Virus record (IMG/VR): IMGVR_UViG_2639763139_000004
Origin: a virus
Lineage: Duplodnaviria > Heunggongvirae > Uroviricota > Caudoviricetes
Length of the DNA: 11,635 bases
Strand: one strand, 5' to 3'
Shown here: one piece after another, positions 826 through 11,635 of the stretch
Position numbering within the stretch: the first letter of the stretch is position 1
How the letters are laid out: the number at the start of each line of letters is the position of its first letter
Translations under genes and position numbers: made by a program
Notes under the pieces: model-generated
The model's database searches: none
Seen by the model: the letters and a program-made list of their open reading frames with translations, nothing else
Told to the model about the DNA's origin: nothing

Positions 826-900
<75 letters not shown>

Positions 901-903
901 ATA

Positions 904-979
<76 letters not shown>

Positions 980-981
980 GC

Positions 982-1058
982 TGGCCCACCACCGAGGACT
1001 CGAACCTCGCACCGTCAACTTAGAAGGTTGATGCTCTATCCGGATGAGCTAGTGGTGG
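982..1058 (-). tRNA. tRNA-Arg (anticodon UCU, reads AGA)
   Basis: Reverse complement CCACCACTAGCTCATCCGGATAGAGCATCAACCTTCTAAGTTGACGGTGCGAGGTTCGAGTCCTCGGTGGTGGGCCA. Perfect acceptor, D, anticodon and T stems; loop CUUCUAA; encoded CCA; unusual C1:G72. Confidence 0.8.
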
Positions 1059-1059
1059 T

Positions 1060-1136
1060 TGGTGGCCCTTGCTGGACTTGAACCAGCGACCTGGCGATTA
1101 TGAGTCGCTCGCTCTGACCAACTGAGCTAAAGGGCC
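1060..1136 (-). tRNA. tRNA with CAU anticodon, probably tRNA-Ile2 (ileX/ileZ-like, AUA decoder) rather than Met
   Basis: Reverse complement GGCCCTTTAGCTCAGTTGGTCAGAGCGAGCGACTCATAATCGCCAGGTCGCTGGTTCAAGTCCAGCAAGGGCCACCA. Anticodon loop CUCAUAA; overall similarity to E. coli ileX from memory. Ile versus Met identity cannot be settled from sequence alone. Confidence 0.8.
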
Positions 1137-3092: not shown

Positions 3093-3172
3093 CTTCAGAA
3101 TCCTTCCAGATAAATAGCTCTCCCCTGTTCGGGGTCCATCCCTCTTCTCCCTGCGCGCTACTTAAGTGAGTC

Positions 3173-3200
3173 GATTCTATCTGCGAAGGTGCGCGAATCA
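3173..3200 (-). promoter_or_regulatory. Candidate sigma70 promoter for the nin-like/Q operon
   Basis: Minus strand TTGATT (3200-3195), 16-nt spacer, TAGAAT (3178-3173). Just downstream of the hok terminator, about 80 nt before the 2805-3092 ORF. Confidence 0.3.
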
Positions 3201-3220
3201 AATTCACCGGAAATAAACAA

Positions 3221-3266
3221 CAAAAAACCCGCCGAAACGCTGAGAGATCACAGCGATGGGCGGGTT
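3221..3266 (-). terminator. Intrinsic terminator at the 3' end of the hok transcript
   Basis: Minus strand AACCCGCC...GGCGGGTT 8-bp stem (3226-3266 region) followed by UUUUUUG (plus A-run 3222-3227). Confidence 0.5.
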
Positions 3267-3341
3267 AAGTGCGGGTGCGTTGAGGATGCCTGACACATCA
3301 GAGGTGGGCGGGGATGGGATCAGCTCCCCACCCGGTCACTC

Positions 3342-3497
3342 TTACTTCCTGGATTCGTAGTCTACGAAGACAGCGACCTCCGTCTGGCCGGTTCGGATTC
3401 GTACCTCACAGAGGTCTTTCCTCGTTACCAGTGCCGTCACTATGACGGTTAAACAGATGACGATCAGGGCGATTAACATCGCCTTTTGCTGCTTCAT
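3342..3497 (-). CDS. hok: Hok/Gef-family type I toxin (51 aa)
   Basis: MKQQKAMLIALIVICLTVIVTALVTRKDLCEVRIRTGQTEVAVFVDYESRK is near-identical in pattern to HokD/RelF from memory. ATG 3495-3497 preceded by AAGGAG. An in-frame upstream extension to 3554 is noted as a possible mok-like coupling reading frame. Confidence 0.85.
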   Translation of the reverse strand: MKQQKAMLIALIVICLTVIVTALVTRKDLCEVRIRTGQTEVAVFVDYESRK

Positions 3498-3668
3498 AGC
3501 CTGCTTCTCCTTGCCTTTCGGCATGTAAGAGGCTAACCTACATGTGCAAAGCATGAAATTGGCCTCAGATTAATGTTAAGCGTCTTGCCGGACGCGTAAT
3601 GTTAACTGGGGCTTTTCTCTATCTGCCTTTTGGTGTTCATGCCTGAAGCAGATAGCCTCAAGCACCCG

Positions 3669-3698
3669 CAGTCATTCTACTTACCTCGCCAATATGAA
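3669..3698 (-). promoter_or_regulatory. Candidate hok mRNA promoter
   Basis: Minus strand TTGATT (3698-3693), 18-nt spacer, TAGAAT (3674-3669). Predicted transcript of about 430 nt ends at the 3221-3266 terminator. Confidence 0.35.
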
Positions 3699-3724
3699 AT
3701 CAATCAGAAAGGTGCCCCATAAAA

Positions 3725-4411
3725 TCACTCCTTCTCTTCTTTACCGTAGTGGAGTTGACCAATTTTGATAAGAGGGCGTCCCTGAGATTTGCGGTGTAGA
3801 TTGGTATCGCGCAGAGAATACACACAGCCACAATATTCCTGCTGATAGAATTTTTCGCGCTTGCTGATTTCAATCATACGGGACGAGCCGCCCTGCTTGC
3901 GCCAGTTATAATCCCAGTACACCATGCCCGGATAATGCGCGACGGCTCGCCGCCCACAGTCGTTAACCTGCTGCATATTTTTCCAGCGTGAAATGCCCAG
4001 TGAACTGCTGATCACACTGAAACCATTTTCAGCGGCGTACAGCGCTGTCCGCTCAAAACGCATGTCAAAACACATGGTGCAACGGATCCCTCGTTCGGGC
4101 TCCCATTCCATTCCTTTGGCTCGTTCAAACCAGTTGTCTGTGTCGTAATCAGCATCAATAAACGGCACGCCGTGTTGTTCAGCAAAGCGAATATTCTCAT
4201 CCTTACGAATTAAATACTCTTTCTGAGGATGAATGTTCGGGTTGTAGAAAAAGATGGTGTAGTCGATTCCCGAGGCCTGAAGCGCCTCCATCACCTCACC
4301 GGAACATGGAGCACAGCAAGAGTGCAGTAGTAGTTTGTTTGCCCCGTTTGGGAGCTCCAATTTGGGCCGTTTGAAATCAGCAACTGTCATAAATATGTTT
4401 ATTGAGGTCAT
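3725..4411 (-). CDS. queH: QueH-like epoxyqueuosine reductase (DUF208), 228 aa
   Basis: [14 protein letters not shown] motif near the N-terminus plus further Cys clusters (CTMC, CGCV). ATG at 4409-4411; alternative ATG at 4388-4390; neither has a strong RBS. Confidence 0.65.
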
Positions 4412-4558
4412 AAAAATATCAAAGAGTGTAGCATTAGAACGGGGCTATCGGAAACAGATGTGTGACTGCTCCCCGCCCTTTCGGGCGGTCTCCTGATGAT
4501 TTGAGGGTGCAGAAATCCCTCCGGTTAAGGATTAAATTTTTAACAGTGCTAAATTTAA

Positions 4559-4915
4559 TTATTCAGTTCTGGATTTTGTCGCCCTGCGTATCCGCGCTTT
4601 CGCGTTACGCTCAATCTGTATCAGCTTTTCTATATTTCTCCGCCTTTCCTGTTCCTCCTGGCGCAATAGCCTTACATCATCTGCCAGTCTGGTTTCTCTT
4701 TTTGCCACAGAGAGCATCCAGTCAAACGGCTCCACAACCGCACCGCAGATTTTACAGCGGACCTGACGCTCTTTTTCGTCAACCCGTACAGAGGCGTGAT
4801 GGCAATATGGTCTTTCCGATGGCTTATAAAGAAAATTAACCTGATTACGAGGGTCATCCTCTTTTATCGGAAATAAAACGATATTGCTTAACTCATCTTC
4901 TGGTTTTATTTCCAT
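4559..4915 (-). CDS. Hypothetical zinc-ribbon protein with basic coiled-coil tail, 118 aa
   Basis: ATG 4913-4915 preceded by AAAGGAGAGGAGC. Contains CHH...(17 aa)...CKIC. The longer upstream ORF start is rejected. Confidence 0.6.
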   Translation of the reverse strand: MEIKPEDELSNIVLFPIKEDDPRNQVNFLYKPSERPYCHHASVRVDEKERQVRCKICGAVVEPFDWMLSVAKRETRLADDVRLLRQEEQERRRNIEKLIQIERNAKARIRRATKSRTE

Positions 4916-4972
4916 GCTCCTCTCCTTTGATGCGAATGCCAGCGGTAATTGAAGCCTGATAGCTAATTTCAT

Positions 4973-5395
4973 TCACAGTATCGCCTCCTGAAAATTACCC
5001 TGATAGAAAGCCAGTACACGCTGCATAGCTTCGCTCTTCCGGCACTCGCGACAGATTATATTCAGGCGCCTGTCGTAGCGGCGTATTTCTCCGTCAGGTA
5101 ATGACCAGATAAGGTCCGGATCAACAACAACCGGTTTCCTCACCTTTACTCTCGAGAGTTTTTTGCGGGCGCTTTGCCAGTCCTTGCGAGCCTGTTCAGA
5201 CGGGAATAAGCCGTAGCCAGAATTATATACATCACCACTTGCGACCAGTTCTATGCATAAGCGACCGACAGACGCACGACTGATACCTGTTTCATCGGAC
5301 AACTGCCGAATCGTGACCCGACCGTCCTGATGCACGAGTTCCACAATTCGCGTCTTCAGTTCTTCCCGCTGTTCGGGAGTAAAAGGTTTCGCCAT
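4973..5395 (-). CDS. Hypothetical winged-helix DNA-binding protein with C-terminal CxxC, 140 aa
   Basis: ATG 5393-5395 preceded by GGAGG at 5-nt spacing. HTH-like segment TIRQLSDETGISRASVGRL; CRECRK near the C-terminus. No family recognised. Confidence 0.6.
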   Translation of the reverse strand: MAKPFTPEQREELKTRIVELVHQDGRVTIRQLSDETGISRASVGRLCIELVASGDVYNSGYGLFPSEQARKDWQSARKKLSRVKVRKPVVVDPDLIWSLPDGEIRRYDRRLNIICRECRKSEAMQRVLAFYQGNFQEAIL

Positions 5396-5409
5396 AAATC
5401 CTCCTGAAA

Positions 5410-6156
5410 CTACTTAACAACCCTCGAATGGCTAACATTCGGACGCCAGCTCTCCCAGTTAAAATTCACCCAGCGCCCGCCGTTCATGACCATGCGATCC
5501 ATCACCCGCTCGCCGAGCAATGTTTTCATCACCTCATAGTTCAGGTTTGTCAGCATCCCCACGCTGCGCATCGACGCTGTCCGGCGATCAACAATCTGGT
5601 GCAGCACCACCTGCTCGTTTTTCGTCTCGCGCTGAATGCCAATTTCATCAAGAACCAGCAGATCCACTTCGCACAGCTCCCGCAAAAATTTTTCGCCTGA
5701 CTGCCCGTCGTCATAGCTGGCGTGCAGGGCGCTCATAACATCAGCCACGGTAACCACAATCACTGTCTGACCGTCTTTCAGCAGGCGATTCCCGATAGCT
5801 GCCGCTAAGTGATTCTACCCGGTATCAGGTTTTCCGCTGAACGCAAAATTTGTACACCCGGTCATCAGTTCATCGGCGATGGATTTCGCCTGGCTTAACG
5901 CGTATCGCTGGCCGTCGTTCTGCACCTGGTAATTCGCAAACGAGCATTTACGGTGCAACGGCTGGATGCCTGAGCGATTCAGAATTTTTTCCACCCGCAA
6001 CTGGCGATTCAGGCGGTTGATCTCCTCGCTACGTTTCTGGCCTTCAGCAAGTTGCCACTCGCGCCACTCCGCTACCGTTCTGAATGGGGCGGTTACATGT
6101 GGCGGGGTCAGTCGGCGGATGCGTTCCAGAACGCCGCCTGTCGCAATATTTTTCAT
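5410..6156 (-). pseudogene. DnaC-like helicase loader interrupted by an in-frame amber codon at the Walker A lysine
   Basis: Two listed ORFs (5815-6156 and 5410-5763) are in the same frame. Translation reads ...FAFSGKPDTG-TAG-NHLAAAIGNRLL...DLLVLDEIG..., with TAG at 5815-5817 where the P-loop Lys is expected. Walker B is present downstream. Confidence 0.7.
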
Positions 6157-6547
6157 GGTCCGTTACCCCCTGAAGCCTGGCGGGATCGCACTGTCCGGCA
6201 ACGAGACGGTGTTAACCTGTCGGAGCAACGTCTCAGGCCGAACACCTTTCGGCGCGAACAGACCCTGGTATTCATTGGCGATGCTGTGTCGAATCACCTG
6301 CTCAGGTGTAAAACCCTGCTGACGGAATTTTTCCAGTTCCCGTATCGCCCTGCTCCGTTCGAATCGGTTTTCGCAATGCCTGTCTGAACCGGACCCACTC
6401 ATGCCAGAGTGTTTCCGGCAACCAATCGGGCAGCTCAATAGCCTCCGGCTCGAATTTTTTAGACGCTCGTTTTTGGCGAGGGGGATTTAGGGGGAGATCA
6501 GTATTTAGATCTTCCTCTTCCACTGGTAACGCTTTTTGATCCGTTTG

Positions 6548-6567
6548 TGTAACGCTGGCAGCGTTAC
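6548..6567. repeat. Palindrome TGTAACGC-N5-GCGTTAC, copy 1
   Basis: GTAACGCTG-G-CAGCGTTAC is a perfect 19-bp dyad inside the replisome-organizer gene. Confidence 0.6.
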
Positions 6568-6754
6568 CTTTTCGTTTCAGTTCGCGTATTTTTGTTACTC
6601 GCTCGTTTGTAACCGCCCGTTTTTTAGAGCTTTTTCCGTTATGACGTTCAAAGTTAGGTAGAGAAAGCCCACCGTCATTTTCGACCAGCCATCCAACCTG
6701 AATTAACGTATCAGCAAAACCAGACATAAAAGTGATGCGATCTATTGCACTTTT

Positions 6755-6775
6755 TGTAACGCCGCGAGCGTTACA
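6755..6775. repeat. Palindrome TGTAACGC-N5-GCGTTACA, copy 2
   Basis: TGTAACGC cgcga GCGTTACA, perfect 8-bp arms, inside the replisome-organizer gene. Confidence 0.6.
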
Positions 6776-6946
6776 ATCTGCATTACCGTCTATCATTTGT
6801 TGATCCGCCCATGCCCAGAAGCGAATAACCTTCCCTAATGCGGCATCTGGATCAATATTCAGAATCTCAGCAAGCCTGAATATTTCCGGCTTATCCGGCG
6901 TAATAACCTCGAGCTTTATCCAGTTTGAAGCCATTTGTTTTCACCT

Positions 6947-6967
6947 TGTAACGCTCGCAGCGTTACA
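6947..6967. repeat. Palindrome TGTAACGC-N5-GCGTTACA, copy 3
   Basis: TGTAACGC tcgca GCGTTACA, perfect 8-bp arms, 13 bp upstream of the replisome-organizer start codon. Confidence 0.6.
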
Positions 6968-7011
6968 TTTAACTGATACCGAACAAAACAATCCGGCACG
7001 ATTAATTTCAA

Positions 7012-7434
7012 TCAATGCACTACGACAGAATCGCCGGGCGACCCACCACCGCTGAAATGTGCTTTCCGGTAAACGGCCTGGACAGCATCATCATGCGCAT
7101 CAATTGCCGTACTCAACGCTTCCTGCGCCGCCAGTAATGCACGGCGTTCCAGGGTATCGAAGATACAGAGTCGGTGACGCAGCTCACGCGGAAGAATTGC
7201 CAGAACCGCAGGGATCAGTTTCTGAATTTTTTCCCTTTGCGCTTTCGTTTCACCTTTCAACCAACGGTGATAGATATTCTGCTGATTGTTCCAGTCCTTG
7301 CCTGGTACCAGAGACAATTCGCCGCCCCCCTGCCGCAGATATTCTTCAGTAATTGCGTTAGCGACCCACGCCTGCCCTTTTTCGGCTGCCAGGGCTAACA
7401 GCACTGATTCGATGTGCTCATGCCTGATTTTCAT
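7012..7434 (-). CDS. YdaT-like (CII-position) prophage protein, 140 aa
   Basis: ATG 7432-7434 overlapping the end of the Cro-like gene. Sequence MKIRHEHIESVLLALAAEKGQAWVANAI... matches the Rac YdaT family from memory. Occupies the cII position. Confidence 0.7.
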   Translation of the reverse strand: MKIRHEHIESVLLALAAEKGQAWVANAITEEYLRQGGGELSLVPGKDWNNQQNIYHRWLKGETKAQREKIQKLIPAVLAILPRELRHRLCIFDTLERRALLAAQEALSTAIDAHDDAVQAVYRKAHFSGGGSPGDSVVVH

Positions 7435-7645
7435 GAATCACCTTCCCAGGTCGTTTTGCCTTACGATATTCGTCATAAACTTTGGGGTCGTACTGAAGTT
7501 CCCCGCCAGATGCCTCTTGCAGGCGCATCGCGCGACCTTCAGGAACCAGTTCCCCCCATGCAGCAATGCTTGCCAGCCTAACTCCTGCGGCATTGGCAAG
7601 CTTTGTTTTGCTGCCAAAAAACGCTATAGCATCAATTTTCAACAT
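7418..7645 (-). CDS. dicC: DicC/YdaS-like Cro-type regulator, 75 aa
   Basis: ATG 7643-7645 preceded by TAAGGAG. Divergent from the repressor gene. Sequence pattern matches DicC from memory. Confidence 0.75.
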   Translation of the reverse strand: MLKIDAIAFFGSKTKLANAAGVRLASIAAWGELVPEGRAMRLQEASGGELQYDPKVYDEYRKAKRPGKVIHENQA

Positions 7646-7653
7646 ATCGAGCT

Positions 7654-7713
7654 CCTTAGATTTTCCTAAGGAAACTAGACCGTAGAGAAACCTAAGTCAA
7701 GAAAAATTAGAAT
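7654..7713. promoter_or_regulatory. Right-operator-like region with two copies of a 14-bp operator motif and divergent promoters
   Basis: Palindrome CCTTAGATTTTCCTAAGG at 7654-7671 and minus-strand CTTAGGTTTCTCTA at 7683-7696. TAGAAT at 7708-7713 lies 8 nt before the repressor ATG, which has no SD. Confidence 0.5.
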
Positions 7714-7721
7714 TCCCTAAT

Positions 7722-8129
7722 ATGAAAAACGAAACCTTCGGTGCTCGCCTCTTACATAGGCGTAAAAAATTAAAACTGTCTCAGGCCGCATTAGGTAAGC
7801 TGGTCAAAGTGGCTCACGTAACAATTTCTCAATGGGAAAGAGATGAAACACAGCCGGCGGGGAAAAGATTATTCGCACTGAGCCAAGCGCTTCAGTGCTC
7901 ACCGACTTGGCTTCTTTTTGGGGATGAAGATAAACAACCAGGCGAACCGATCCCGGATAATCAGCCAGCCATTCTGACAGAAGATCAAAAAGAGTTACTT
8001 CAACTGTTCGACGCACTGCCTGAGTCAGAGCAAAAGGCCCTGTTGTCAGAGATGCGTGCTCGAGTTGAAAATTTCAACAAACTTTTTGAAGAACTACTCA
8101 AAGCTCGCAAAAGAAGCGCAAACAAATAA
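7722..8129 (+). CDS. dicA: DicA-like HTH repressor, 135 aa, no S24 peptidase domain
   Basis: ATG 7722, TAA 8127-8129. HTH segment LSQAALGKLVKVAHVTISQWERDETQP and tail LFALSQALQCSPTWLLFGDEDKQ...NFNKLFEELLKAR match DicA from memory. Confidence 0.85.
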   Translation: MKNETFGARLLHRRKKLKLSQAALGKLVKVAHVTISQWERDETQPAGKRLFALSQALQCSPTWLLFGDEDKQPGEPIPDNQPAILTEDQKELLQLFDALPESEQKALLSEMRARVENFNKLFEELLKARKRSANK

Positions 8130-8201
8130 TCCCCTTTTTTCTCCACACCCTGTAATAAAAAGCACAAACTTTCAAACACTTGTGTTTTTTACATCAAAAA
8201 G

Positions 8202-8254
8202 CTTAGGTTTTTCTACACAAAAATCTTGACCACCCTCCTTAGGTTATTCTAAAT
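8202..8254 (+). promoter_or_regulatory. Left-operator-like region: two more copies of the operator motif flanking a candidate promoter
   Basis: CTTAGGTTTTTCTA at 8202-8215 and CTTAGGTTATTCTA at 8239-8252. TTGACC at 8226-8231 with a weak -10 around 8249-8255, upstream of the ydfA-like gene. Confidence 0.45.
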
Positions 8255-8331
8255 TTTATTCATCAAGACACCGCACGGTGTTCTCAGCAAACAGTTCCGC
8301 TACCCCGGCGTTAAGGGGAAATGGGGTCAAC

Positions 8332-8487
8332 ATGAATACTATCGATCTTGGCAACAACGAATCTCCGGTGTACGGCGTGTTCCCCAACCAGGACGGCACA
8401 TTCACCGCCATGACGTATACCAAAAGCAAAACGTTTAAAACCGAAGCTGGCGCACGTCGTTGGTTGGGAAGACATTCAGGTGAGTAA
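8332..8487 (+). CDS. ydfA: YdfA/YdaF-like small protein (DUF1391-type), 51 aa
   Basis: ATG 8332 with AAGGGGA upstream. MNTIDLGNNESPVYGVFPNQDGTFTAMTYTKSKTFKTEAGARRWLGRHSGE; first gene after the repressor, as in the dicB operon. Confidence 0.7.
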   Translation: MNTIDLGNNESPVYGVFPNQDGTFTAMTYTKSKTFKTEAGARRWLGRHSGE

Positions 8488-8488
8488 A

Positions 8489-8692
8489 ATGAACGAGACA
8501 GAATTAAAACACGTTATCGCTCTACTCCTAGAAGATGCAAAACGCCTCCAGCAACTGGAGCCAAATGCAGGCACTGGGGCACGCATCTGGCTGGCTAAAG
8601 AAGCGCTGGAATCTGGCGATTATGATAGCGAAGAAGCCTTCTACAAAGCAGAAGGCCGTGCAGGATATTCACCGGGTCTTGGCGGGGTATAA
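8489..8692 (+). CDS. Hypothetical small protein, 67 aa
   Basis: ATG 8489 immediately after the upstream stop, preceded by AGGTGAG. No family recognised. Confidence 0.5.
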   Translation: MNETELKHVIALLLEDAKRLQQLEPNAGTGARIWLAKEALESGDYDSEEAFYKAEGRAGYSPGLGGV

Positions 8693-8933
8693 ATACCATG
8701 CGCATTGACTGAATTCGCAAACAAAAACAGACGCGCGATACCCGGATAGTCGGTCTGCATAGTCAGATATCTGGCTGCGAATTTGATAAATATCACCGCC
8801 CTTTTCGGAAACATAAGTTCCGTCCGGGAGTTGATTATACGAACCATCTCCATGGGGGATCGTTCTCCTGAATCCTAGTGAGAGCATATATTTATGAAGC
8901 CCTTCGTAATCCTCTGGCTCAGTGGATTTGCCC

Positions 8934-9839
8934 CTATATTTCCAGACATCTGTTATCACTTAACCCATTACAAGCCCGCTGCCGCAGATATTCCCGTGGC
9001 GAGCGATAACCCAGCGCACTATGCGGATGCCATTCGTTATAATGCTCGAACGCCTCTGCAAGGTTCTTTGCTGCCGTTAACCCGTCTGGTTTGGGCATGA
9101 TACTGATGTAGTCACGCTTTATCGTTTTCACGAAGCTCTCTGCTATTCCGTTACTCTCCGGACTCCGCACCGCCGTGTTCTTCGGTTCAAGTCCCAACAT
9201 CCGGGCGAACTGGCGTGTTTCATTAGCCCGGTAGCATGAACCATTATCCGTCAGCCACTCCACTGGAGACGACGGAAGATCGTTGCCGAAGCGGCGTTCC
9301 ACCGCTCCCAGCATGACGTCCTGTACTGTTTCACTGTTGAAGCCGCCGGTAGTCACCGCCCAGTGCAGTGCCTCACGATCACAGCAGTCCAGCGCGAACG
9401 TGACACGCAGTCTCTCTCCGTTATCACAGCAGAACTCGAACCCGTCAGAGCACCATCGCTGATTGCTTTCTTTCACGGCCACTCTGCCTGTATGTGCCCG
9501 TTTCGATGGCGGTACAGCAGGTTTTCGCTCAAGCAACAGCGCATTCTGGCGCATGAGCCGGTAAACACGTTTGGCATTGATCGCAGGCATACCATCAAGT
9601 TCTGCCTGTCTGCGAAGCAGCGCCCATACCCGACGATAACCATACGTGGGCAGCTCTCCGATAACATGGTGTATACGGAGAAGCACATCCGTATCATCAG
9701 TGTGACGACTGCGGCGGCCATCCATCCAGTCATCGGTTCGTCTGAGAATGACGTGCAACTGCGCACGCGACACCCGGAGACAACGGCTGACTAAGCTTAC
9801 TCCCCATCCCCGGGCAATAAGGGCGCGTGCGCTATCCAC
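8934..9839 (-). CDS. insD: IS2 transposase OrfB (InsD), made as an OrfAB fusion by -1 frameshifting
   Basis: 301-aa frame with integrase-core motifs. Slippery heptamer A AAA AAG at 9839-9845 (minus) sits at the InsC/InsD overlap. Confidence 0.9.
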
Positions 9840-10162
9840 TTTTTTGCCCGTCCATATTCAACGGCTTCTTTGAGGAGTTCATTTTCCATCGTTTTCTTGC
9901 CGAGCAGGCGCTGGAGTTCTTTAATCTGCTTCATGGCGGCAGCAAGTTCAGAGGCAGGAACAACCTGTTCTCCGGCGGCCACAGCAGTAAGACTTCCTTC
10001 CTGGTATTGCTTACGCCAGAGAAATAACTGGCTGGCTGCTACACCATGTTGCCGGGCAACGAGGGAGACCGTCATCCCCGGTTCAAAGCTCTGCTGAACA
10101 ATTGCGATCTTTTCCTGTGTGGTACGCCGTCTGCGTTTCTCCGGCCCTAAGACATCAATCAT
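9797..10162 (-). CDS. insC: IS2 OrfA (InsC), 121 aa
   Basis: ATG 10160-10162; sequence [41 protein letters not shown]... is a typical IS3-family HTH OrfA. Confidence 0.9.
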
Positions 10163-10474
10163 CTGTTCTCCAATGACTAGTCTAAAAACTAGTATTAAGA
10201 CTATCACTTTTTAACATTGATGCAGTCTCTTTGAGAGCTGACATCGCTAATACATCACTTGCTCACTCTTCTTATTGTTGGGGTATTCAGATTATACAAA
10301 TTTCTTGTTGTTGGGGAATAACAGGAACCACCTCGCCTGACGTAGTTAAAAGCAGGCACACAACGCGAAATGACGCGGCGGTAAGTATGGCGGAGTTATT
10401 CCTTCCCCGTTGAGGACACCGGGTTGTCAGGTTGACCATACGCTTAAGTGACAACCACGCCACAACACTCCATG

Positions 10475-10530
10475 TTGATTGGTACCTTTGGCGGCATCAG
10501 TTTCATTGCTGGCTGATGTCCGCCCTTTTT
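10475..10530 (+). ncRNA. dicF: DicF-like small RNA with its intrinsic terminator
   Basis: UUGAUUGGUACCUUUGGCGGCAUCAGUUUCAUUGCUGGCUGAUGUCCGCCCUUUUU shares the UUUGGCGG(U/C)AUCAGUUU core and CCGCCCUUUUU-AAAGUGAAUUUUGUGAUG 3' context recalled for E. coli DicF. Hairpin GGCGGCATCAG/CTGATGTCCGCC plus T5. Same strand as the dicA/ydfA genes. Confidence 0.45.
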
Positions 10531-10826
10531 AAAGTGAATTTTGTGATGCGGTGAATGCGGCTGAGCGCACGCGGAACAGTTAAAAAGCGATTAGTTCCCA
10601 CGTATCGGGTGGTTATGGGTTTCCCTGTATCCGGCGTTAATTGTTAACTGGTTAACGTCACCTGGAGGCACCAGGCACCGCATCAACAAAGTTCACTTCG
10701 GTGATGAAAGGTAAGAGAAAATGTTGAATGTAGCTATTGAAAACCAGAACGGGTGGAATTATAGTGCATCTGCACCTCATAAAACGGGGGCCGGGCGTGG
10801 AAACCCGAACGTTACTCGAGCGCATA

Positions 10827-10848
10827 GCCGCGCTGAAGCGGTTTTTTT
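10827..10848 (+). terminator. Hairpin plus T7 in the leader upstream of the Rha-like gene
   Basis: AGCCGC gctgaa GCGGTT followed by TTTTTTT (10842-10848). Lies inside the rejected N-terminal extension of the Rha ORF. Confidence 0.35.
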
Positions 10849-11017
10849 ATGCGTAATGCACAGCTCCATTCAAATTATGGTGGGATGTGCAGGGCAGTCG
10901 CAAGACTGGCCGGGTTCTCGAGTGACCGGTATTTCCACCCCTGTACGTCTCACCACCCTTATGGTCGTGGAAAACCTCGGTGGTGAGTTAATTAACTTAT
11001 CACTCGAGGATGCCATC

Positions 11018-11559
11018 ATGGCTACTATCCCTGCCCTTTCTCACCCTGACGTAACCATCGAAAACGGTCGCGCTGTCACTACGTCTGTTGCGGTTGCAGA
11101 GTTCTTCCACAAACGACACGACAATGTGTTACGTGCCATCGCAAATACTGAATGCTCACCTGAATTTAACGCCCTCAATTTTGAGGACGTCACCTACACC
11201 GACACCAAAGGCGAAAAACGCCCAATGTACCAAATCACCAAAAACGGCTTCGTTTTCCTGGTGATGGGCTTCACTGGGAAAAAAGCCGCTGCATTCAAAG
11301 AGGCCTACATCGCTGATGTTCGACCGCATGGAGGCAGAACTGCACCAGAATAATACCCCGTCCGCTGACAAGATGATTCCGGGTAACGGTCGCACTCTGG
11401 TTGTGCACTTCGACGAACACGGCAATATCAGATTCACCGAAACTGTTCCTGACGGTGCACTGGTCTGTACCCTGGATACTTTCCAGTTTTATCTGGAAAA
11501 ACAGGGGTGGGCTCTTGTAAACCGGAGCGCAATTAAAAATATGACCGTAGAGCAGCTGC
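11018..11559 (+). pseudogene. Rha-family regulatory protein gene, frameshifted near 11318 and cut at its 3' end by IS2
   Basis: ATG 11018 preceded by GAGGA. Frame 1 gives ...VAVAEFFHKRHDNVLRAI...MYQITKNGFVFLVMGFTGKKAAAFKEAYIAD then VRPHGGRTAPE*. The Rha-like continuation FDRMEAELHQ... is in the +1 frame from 11319 and runs into the IS2 end at 11560. Confidence 0.55.
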
Positions 11560-11635
11560 TAGACTGGCCCCCTGAATCTCCAGACAACCAGTATCACTTA
11601 TTTAAGTGATAGTCTTAATACTAGTTTTTAGACTA
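11560..11635 (+). mobile_element. Left end of a second IS2 copy, inverted relative to the first, running off the window
   Basis: TAGACTGGCCCCCTGAATCTCCAGACAACCAGTATCACTTATTTAAGTGATAGTCTTAATACTAGTTTTTAGACTA; its last 32 nt are the exact reverse complement of 10178-10209. Confidence 0.85.

Follow-up and report, generated by a model that had tools for sequence, protein, structure and literature searches.

The window analysed here, the whole of an 11,635-nucleotide (nt) stretch recorded as IMG/VR virus record IMGVR_UViG_2639763139_000004, is a piece of lambdoid prophage carrying many insertion sequences, and the element in question is a small RNA (sRNA) of the DicF/KilS type encoded on its plus strand. 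Genes of the dicC, dicA and ydfA type lie upstream of this sRNA, followed by a copy of the insertion sequence IS2; downstream come a conserved leader, an IsrK/C4 RNA module, a pseudogene of the Rha family and, at the window edge, the left end of a second IS2 copy. The region is probably an IS2-mediated chimera in a Shigella flexneri-type chromosome, in which the decayed early-left regions of two lambdoid prophages (Qin/Rac-type) are joined at the truncated first IS2 copy; we refer to the source of the left part as prophage A and to the source of positions 10210-11635 as prophage B. The region holds no new kind of system, since it is a case of prophage decay driven by insertion sequences in which every module is of a known kind, and its only point of wider interest is the allelic series found at the dicF slot.

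A DicF-like sRNA had been called here by a sequence-only reading of the window. A scan with the Rfam DicF model (RF00039) indeed gave a plus-strand match at 10477-10525 (38.8 bits; E values of 1.2e-5 across the window and 9e-7 in a local search), although this is below the DicF gathering score of 48, and we refer to the allele as non-canonical class B. The RNA (10477-10530, plus strand, with the 5' end placed by model alignment) consists of a 5' tail, GAUUGGUACCUUU, a G+C-rich terminator hairpin of 13 pairs at 10490-10524 and a U5 tail, encoded by T5 at 10526-10530 (terminator scan and fold; −21 kcal/mol, z = −2.9). Flanks were aligned among K-12 Qin, PPompW, A19 and RMDEC465. The conserved upstream flank of the cassette (10360-10476, plus strand), which contains hairpins at 10422-10456 and 10459-10483, was nearly identical to the K-12 dicF flank, and because both flanks are near-identical to those of K-12 dicF, the window sRNA occupies the same genomic slot and is a positional homologue of dicF.

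Class B is built like DicF of the Qin prophage (a 5' tail that is single-stranded, then a terminator hairpin with GGCGG...CCGCC and finally a U tail), and 44 of 54 positions (81%) are identical to K-12 DicF. The differences lie in the 5' single-stranded part and in the loop and 3' arm and alter target-pairing segments, in line with the earlier statement that this sRNA departs from K-12 DicF. The 5' tail is UUUCUGGUGACGUUU in DicF and GAUUGGUACCUUU in class B, and both the loop (UUUCAUUG in class B) and the 3' arm are changed; moreover, DicF sits with dicB downstream and an operon promoter, whereas the window sRNA has neither. Identity to the 3' part of KilS (b4833), the sRNA of the Rac prophage, is 45 of 54 positions. 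KilS has the same stem (GGCGGCAUCAG/CUGAUGUCCGCCC) as the window allele and shares with it the cassette and the leader that follows, being located ahead of kilR, a division inhibitor gene, but it is 98 nt long, differs in its 5' region, loop and upstream flank, and apparently has its own promoter, whereas the window allele has a DicF-type (processed) flank. The KilS-type upstream flank accompanies the alleles designated 2 and G. A further difference is that the IsrK-C4-Rha insert lies between the window allele and kilR, which is found downstream only in Shigella-type relatives, past the second IS2 copy. By these alignments the window sRNA reads as a mosaic allele of a hypervariable sRNA slot that is occupied by DicF in Qin and by KilS in Rac: its upstream flank is of the DicF type and its stem of the KilS type, whereas the 5' tail and loop are its own. 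A copy identical to it occurs in E. coli P393-F10, in an intact operon of repressor, ydaF (ydfA-like), ydfB, sRNA, dicB and DUF1482 genes; the ydfABC-dicF-dicB operon setting under a DicA-controlled promoter, which is missing from the window, is thus present around the identical P393-F10 allele.

In IMG/VR and the species-representative genomes, anchored scans yielded 264 usable loci, among which 62 distinct sRNA bodies were found. An exact 26-mer of the upstream flank was present in more than 120 IMG/VR contigs, and in the scanned collections the cassette was confined to Escherichia/Shigella and a few metagenome bins of unrelated name, which were taken to be contamination. Canonical DicF was dominant in the upstream-anchored sample, alongside many other alleles with varied 5' tails and loops on the GGCGG...CCGCC stem and U tail; class B was found in about 108 of 5,426 complete E. 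coli genomes at 80 to 100% identity. The commonest non-canonical allele was the sRNA annotated in K-12 as KilS, upstream of kilR in Rac (positions 1906-2003 of L311; L-numbers denote the relative loci compared). KilS is a northern-verified sRNA detected by Hfq RNA interaction by ligation and sequencing (RIL-seq), and the paper that named it is silent on DicF (Bar et al. 2021, PMC8175672). Scores with the Rfam DicF model were 76.7 for K-12 and PPompW and 43.5, 39.1 and 28.6 for other non-canonical alleles, or gave no match, so that every non-canonical allele tested fell below the threshold. The DicF copies analysed by Balasubramanian et al. (2016, PMC5069750) were more than 99% identical. S. 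flexneri and E. coli SE11 were scored as having lost dicF (PMC3318445), a result with which the subthreshold scores fit; E. coli SE11 does hold a class B-like copy. S. flexneri-type chromosomes carry several alleles (L296, L304, L310, L003-L008 and L283-L289), with class G in prophage A and class B in a remnant beside kilR, and strain SFBU0723 has a canonical-type copy together with a KilS-type one.

The conservation profile over the 62 alleles showed flanks conserved at 95 to 100% around a variable body, of which only the stem and U tail were well kept; the hairpin was maintained across alleles (94.7% of stem positions paired, with compensatory change at two pairs). Such a profile is compatible with the hairpin being a mere intrinsic terminator of the early-left operon, whose variation reflects drift and recombination and whose non-canonical alleles have no role in trans. 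The strong terminator signature fits, as does the retention of stem and U tail with a freely variable loop and 5' tail, and partners of the variable parts did not come to light: pairing of the 5' tail with the variable block of its own leader was rejected (−10.75 kcal/mol for cognate and −10.89 kcal/mol for non-cognate pairs), and a search for trans targets of the tail and loop in 2.9 Mb of fetched prophage DNA returned only the opposite strand of the sRNA itself and chance-level 11-mers. However, both DicF and KilS have been detected in experiments as sRNAs associated with Hfq, DicF with validated targets, and a scrambled body between flanks of 95 to 100% conservation does not look like simple neutral drift, and we consider a role restricted to termination possible but doubtful. 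Equally tentative is the proposal that DicF, KilS and the dozens of unnamed alleles are one hypervariable "seed-swapping" cassette, in which constant flanks hold an exchangeable target-selecting tail and loop aimed at different host or phage mRNAs. If so, this cassette would lie just upstream of the division-inhibitor gene in lambdoid early-left operons and present prophage-specific targets on the same scaffold; most members would escape standard DicF surveys that rely on >99% identity or on the gathering score of Rfam, and two or three such alleles would be present in S. flexneri, for which a loss of dicF has been scored. The literature treats DicF as a single conserved sRNA, against which stand the number of alleles, their subthreshold scores and the identity of KilS. 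Should the alleles differ in their targets, prophage control of division and metabolism would vary among strains in a way hidden from current annotation.

In canonical DicF, the 3' region is used for ftsZ and pykA (and also for manX) and the 5' end for xylR, and these targets have been validated. Pairing with these targets was assessed by a windowed, accessibility-corrected energy calculation with shuffle controls; folding each whole sRNA with its target as a plain duplex gave long, unrealistic pairings and was dropped in favour of this method. For canonical DicF, the known xylR, manX and pykA sites were recovered (total energies of −9 to −13 kcal/mol, in the 3% tail of the shuffles). For class B, none of these three sites was recovered in the accessibility-corrected calculation, and energies were within the shuffle range. 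With respect to ftsZ, the Shine-Dalgarno-complementary CUCC motif is lost in class B, and the block pairing upstream of the ribosome-binding site is largely altered; in K-12, ftsZ repression was weakened in DicF23, in which the upstream pairing is mutated. The hairpin to be opened is also more stable by 5 kcal/mol in class B (−21 kcal/mol) than in DicF (−15.9 kcal/mol). A change in target specificity, which had been raised as a possibility in the sequence-only reading, is therefore suggested computationally by the lost pairing with xylR, pykA and manX, whereas for ftsZ the method did not discriminate.

We consider it unlikely that the RNA still does the work of DicF as its orthologue, repressing ftsZ and so blocking division in the strain. 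The 81% identity to DicF, the presence of the same allele upstream of dicB in an intact operon, a possible duplex with ftsZ and the segment AUCAGUUU, which is invariant across alleles and complementary to ftsZ −5 to +3, all count in favour of such an orthologue, but the CUCC motif and most of the upstream-pairing block, mutation of which weakened ftsZ repression in DicF23, are changed, the duplex loses 9 kcal/mol and the hairpin is harder to open, and the RNA has no evident promoter and lies in a disrupted operon. A promoter scan found no sigma-70-like promoter in 10210-10476, and the nearest early promoter is the PL-like one of the other prophage, with 1.3 kb of IS2, read antisense, lying between it and the RNA. 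Were the prophage intact, transcripts started at the repressor-controlled early-left promoter would stop at the hairpin or undergo processing around it. An Hfq-type sRNA would thereby be released from their 3' end, with targets selected by its single-stranded 5' tail and its loop. With the native promoter gone, the PL-like promoter cut off by the antisense IS2 and the DicF pairing segments altered, activity is disfavoured, and most likely the window copy is silent or poorly expressed, or at least is no DicF-equivalent regulator of ftsZ, xylR, pykA and manX. Some results weigh on the other side. The loop and 3' arm of class B still paired with ftsZ −35 to +3 at −18.7 kcal/mol (−27.9 kcal/mol for DicF) in a calculation that cannot part even the canonical DicF-ftsZ pair from shuffles, so that the loss of ftsZ control by class B is likely rather than established; in addition, KilS-type alleles possibly have their own promoter, and a weak promoter may lie upstream of class B.

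The first IS2 copy lies on the minus strand at 8923-10209, between the ydfA-like gene and the sRNA as previously described, with 99.3 to 99.8% identity to annotated IS2, open insC and insD genes and an intact right inverted repeat. It is not a plain insertion into a single operon. A check for two terminal repeats and for a target duplication of 5 bp showed that the left inverted repeat lacks 44 bp and that no duplication is present, so that the element should be immobile. The same IS2 is complete in L011, L283, L284 and L289 (1,331 bp, with a CTCAG duplication), where it lies inside a minus-strand gene of about 98 codons and is followed by the class G sRNA allele and an intact Ash/Rha open reading frame (ORF), with 85% identity to the right side of the window; L290 and L292 carry the same prophage without IS2. 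To the left of IS2 copy 1, the window holds the 3' part of this gene, broken by the IS2 (8669-8922, minus strand, with the CTCAG target site at 8918-8922). The gene could be rebuilt from L011 by deleting IS2 and one copy of the duplication, and its counterpart in L290 is unbroken (96 amino acids). To the right lie the first 12 codons of a minus-strand accessory gene of the second prophage (10210-10244), broken at the junction, which runs on in L003-L007 and L002 (78 to 148 amino acids). Since the gene fragments flanking IS2 copy 1 thus come from different genes, the two sides do not form one interrupted operon. IS2 copy 1 ends within a palindrome, ATCACTT/AAGTGAT; microhomology at the junction 10209/10210 amounts to only 1 to 2 nt, and no ORF of at least 30 amino acids crosses it. 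Immediately upstream of the truncated minus-strand gene is an 18-nt direct repeat (10269-10286, TTCTTATTGTTGGGGTAT; 10302-10319, TTCTTGTTGTTGGGGAAT), which may serve this gene as an operator or promoter element.

The two sides of the junction were traced to different relatives. Contig AFHA01000024 (L011) matches the left half of the window (3128-10209) at 99.7% identity, and the window dicA allele is present in many chromosomes of 4.4 to 5.2 Mb. The right end (10209-11635) is 99.9 to 100% identical to six chromosomes with ipaH-type genes nearby, and the right side matches L003-L007 at the same level of identity, with a different left context there; the source chromosome was, we infer, of the S. 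flexneri type. Both prophages are present in CP026788, the prophage B remnant at 0.91 Mb and prophage A at 1.43 Mb, in opposite orientation and about 0.5 Mb apart, and an inversion between these two points would yield exactly the window junction. The left part contributed by prophage A would comprise the cro-like gene, the cI-like gene (dicA), the PL-like promoter, ydfA, a 70-amino-acid ORF and the small opposite-strand gene struck by IS2. The right part would be a 1.35-kb island of prophage B, reaching from the broken left end of IS2 copy 1 to the intact left end of IS2 copy 2 and made up of a dicF-type cassette (processing flank, 54-nt hairpin RNA and leader) with an inserted isrK-orf45-C4-Rha module; beyond the window, to judge from relatives, the prophage B lineage would continue with kilR instead of dicB. 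What had been read as a rearranged dicB-operon side is accordingly an early-left region of dicB-operon type, but its two sides, left and right of IS2, derive from different prophages.

Two points tell against this composite reading. The junction 10209/10210 was not found in the other public sequence searched (an exact 33-nt junction pattern was absent from the species-representative genomes, the JGI metagenomes and all fetched loci), so that its origin has to be argued from this window alone, and the S. flexneri-type assignment leans on the ipaH-type genes nearby and on neighbouring accessions. The same absence from genome and metagenome collections, together with the position of the junction in the repeated sequence of IS2 and the presence of an inverted IS2 end at a distance of 1.4 kb, might indicate an assembly artefact. 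Assemblers, however, need long overlaps, whereas the break lies inside IS2 with only 1 to 2 nt in common with its partner, and illegitimate recombination at a palindrome is plausible in Shigella genomes rich in insertion sequences; because no overlap exists at the junction, an assembly error is possible but improbable. Least credible, and in our view very improbable, is a single Qin-like dicB operon split by a simple IS2 insertion between ydfA and dicF, with a later deletion of dicB, since the Qin-like order of dicC, dicA, ydfA and sRNA, the presence of IS2 and the absence of DicB are outweighed by the IS2 copy being incomplete and unduplicated here but complete with CTCAG in L011, L283 and L284, by the different, 85% identical sRNA allele that follows it there, by the fragments of different genes on its two sides, by the co-occurrence of the conserved 480-bp insert with dicB in E. 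coli A19, and by the failure to find class B natively linked to this dicA allele and the 98-amino-acid gene without IS2 in any of ten contexts. A composite of two prophages better accommodates the ten genomes that carry prophage A, in which allele G was found each time and the window junction in none.

Downstream of the sRNA, the roughly 480 bp before the Rha gene were described earlier as holding no DicB-like ORF. This is correct, but the interval is not an empty scar, since it consists of a conserved leader and a module of two RNA genes. The structured leader (10531-10700, plus strand) matches STnc100 below threshold (36.5 bits; gathering score, 47) and has a long-range stem of 15 bp (10539-10553/10676-10690). 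Over the 62 alleles, its columns are 95 to 100% conserved except in one variable block, whichever gene follows (dicB, kilR or the IsrK-Rha module), and K-12 likewise has a subthreshold STnc100 match between dicF and dicB. The leader is also present at L010 2933-3142 and in L311. It may hold the RNase III site that gives the 72-nt form of DicF. The "DicB, partial" annotated upstream of Rha in A19 was examined as a possible DicB remnant and rejected, as it is a translation of the conserved leader.

The leader is followed by a candidate promoter, TTGAAA-17-TATAGT (10737-10765, plus strand; 10 of 12 consensus positions), whose spacing fits an IsrK start at about 10772. An IsrK-type RNA (10772-10848, plus strand) was identified by Rfam isrK (RF01394; 59.6 bits, above the gathering score of 50), with a1 at 10797-10803, b1 at 10814-10820 and a terminator at 10826-10843. 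Next come a 45-codon ORF from the ORF list (10849-10986, plus strand), matched by locus layout to the position of Gifsy-1 orf45, and a C4 antisense RNA (10873-10960, plus strand; Rfam C4, RF01695; 76.7 bits, gathering score 45), with its b' loop at 10917-10925 and a' at 10932-10940. The C4 b' loop CUCGAGUGA and a' UUUCCAC have exact complements in IsrK (b1 and a1) and again at the target sites a2 (10967-10973, plus strand; 7 nt) and b2 (11000-11008, plus strand; 9 nt), the latter overlapping the Rha Shine-Dalgarno sequence GAGGA. The order of promoter, IsrK with terminator, 45-codon ORF and antirepressor-like gene is that of Gifsy-1 isrK-orf45-anrP (Hershko-Shalev et al. 2016, PMC4825925). In contrast to Gifsy-1 and P1, the window module lies within a dicF-kilR/dicB early-left operon rather than beside antQ or in P1 immI, and its downstream gene is of the Rha family and inactivated in the window. 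The insert also occurs in E. coli A19, where dicB comes directly after Rha. This indicates that the module was inserted behind the leader and ahead of the division-inhibitor gene and is not the scar of a dicB deletion. The IsrK/C4 unit, with its own candidate promoter, could still be transcribed, even though its client Rha is a pseudogene. Its layout resembles that of the P1/P7 immI c4 antisense system, as reportedly described by Citron and Schuster in 1990.

An ORF at 10721-11017 (Pfam Phage_ASH, 2.2e-14) spans the IsrK and C4 genes in frame with Rha, and the L001 and L002 records annotate a fused ORF of 282 to 284 amino acids as Rha. Among 25 distinct homologues, diversity at the three codon positions was 0.153/0.183/0.178 in the Ash part (no bias) and 0.227/0.201/0.340 in the Rha part (bias), and the Ash-part ORF stays open in 23 of the 25 despite the lack of codon-position bias. 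For the most part, the "Ash" family may consist of translated RNA genes.

The Rha gene predicted after the 480 bp was confirmed by a Phage_pRha match starting at 11018, but it is a pseudogene (11018-11559, plus strand; 1.8e-28), with an additional T near 11317 and IS2 copy 2 inserted three codons before the stop; the +1 frameshift is visible against L001, L002 and L011. Of IS2 copy 2, the window contains the left end with an intact left inverted repeat (11560-11635, plus strand), which forms a perfect 32-nt inverted repeat with 10178-10209 and runs past the window edge. This copy, seen whole in L003-L008, represents a simple insertion, its target duplication in L003 being GCTGC. No DicB homologue was found in the window or in Shigella-type loci by tblastn with K-12 and A19 DicB (best E = 0.66), in agreement with the lack of a DicB-like ORF noted before. 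In L003, kilR, ydaE and recE follow 65 bp after IS2 copy 2, and the presence of kilR past Rha in relatives indicates that the division inhibitor of this prophage lineage is KilR, encoded outside the window.

On the prophage A side, the dicA-, dicC- and ydfA-like genes that had been recognised from the sequence were identified by Pfam matches and identity, except that dicC lies on the opposite strand. The dicC/cro-like regulator (7418-7645, minus strand; P22_Cro, 3.1e-13) has 75% amino acid identity to K-12 DicC and 89% to PPompW DicC, and the dicA/cI-like repressor (7722-8129, plus strand; HTH_3, 7.8e-14, and Phage_CI_repr) has 98% identity to PPompW DicA and 62% to K-12 DicA. A candidate PL/PdicB-like promoter, TTGACC-18-TAAATT (8226-8255, plus strand; 9 of 12 in a consensus scan), follows dicA as in K-12 and presumably serves the same function. 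The ydfA-like gene (8332-8487, plus strand; DUF1391, 7.8e-27) is 90% identical to K-12 YdfA at the amino acid level. At the position of ydfB/ydfC lies an ORF of 70 amino acids (8480-8692, plus strand) homologous to neither; a Pfam scan and blastp against YdfB and YdfC gave no match, and the exact protein is recorded in two assemblies only.

Further to the left, four tandem tRNA genes (826-1136, minus strand; Gly-TCC, Thr-TGT, Arg-TCT and Met-CAT) adjoin an antiterminator Q-like gene, as is typical of late-promoter regions in certain lambdoid prophages. A hok/sok-type toxin-antitoxin locus is found at 3342-3667 (minus strand), with a sok RNA (117 bits, 3492-3667) and a 70-amino-acid ORF (3342-3554, minus strand) annotated in relatives as HOK_GEF. 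It is followed by an ORF of 228 amino acids (3725-4411, minus strand), inside the prophage, whose counterpart in relatives has a Pfam QueH match (epoxyqueuosine reductase). Finally, a DnaC/IstB-like replication gene (5410-6156, minus strand) is apparently split into ORFs of 117 and 113 amino acids, compared with a single product of 248 amino acids in L287 and L290, which is a further sign of prophage decay.

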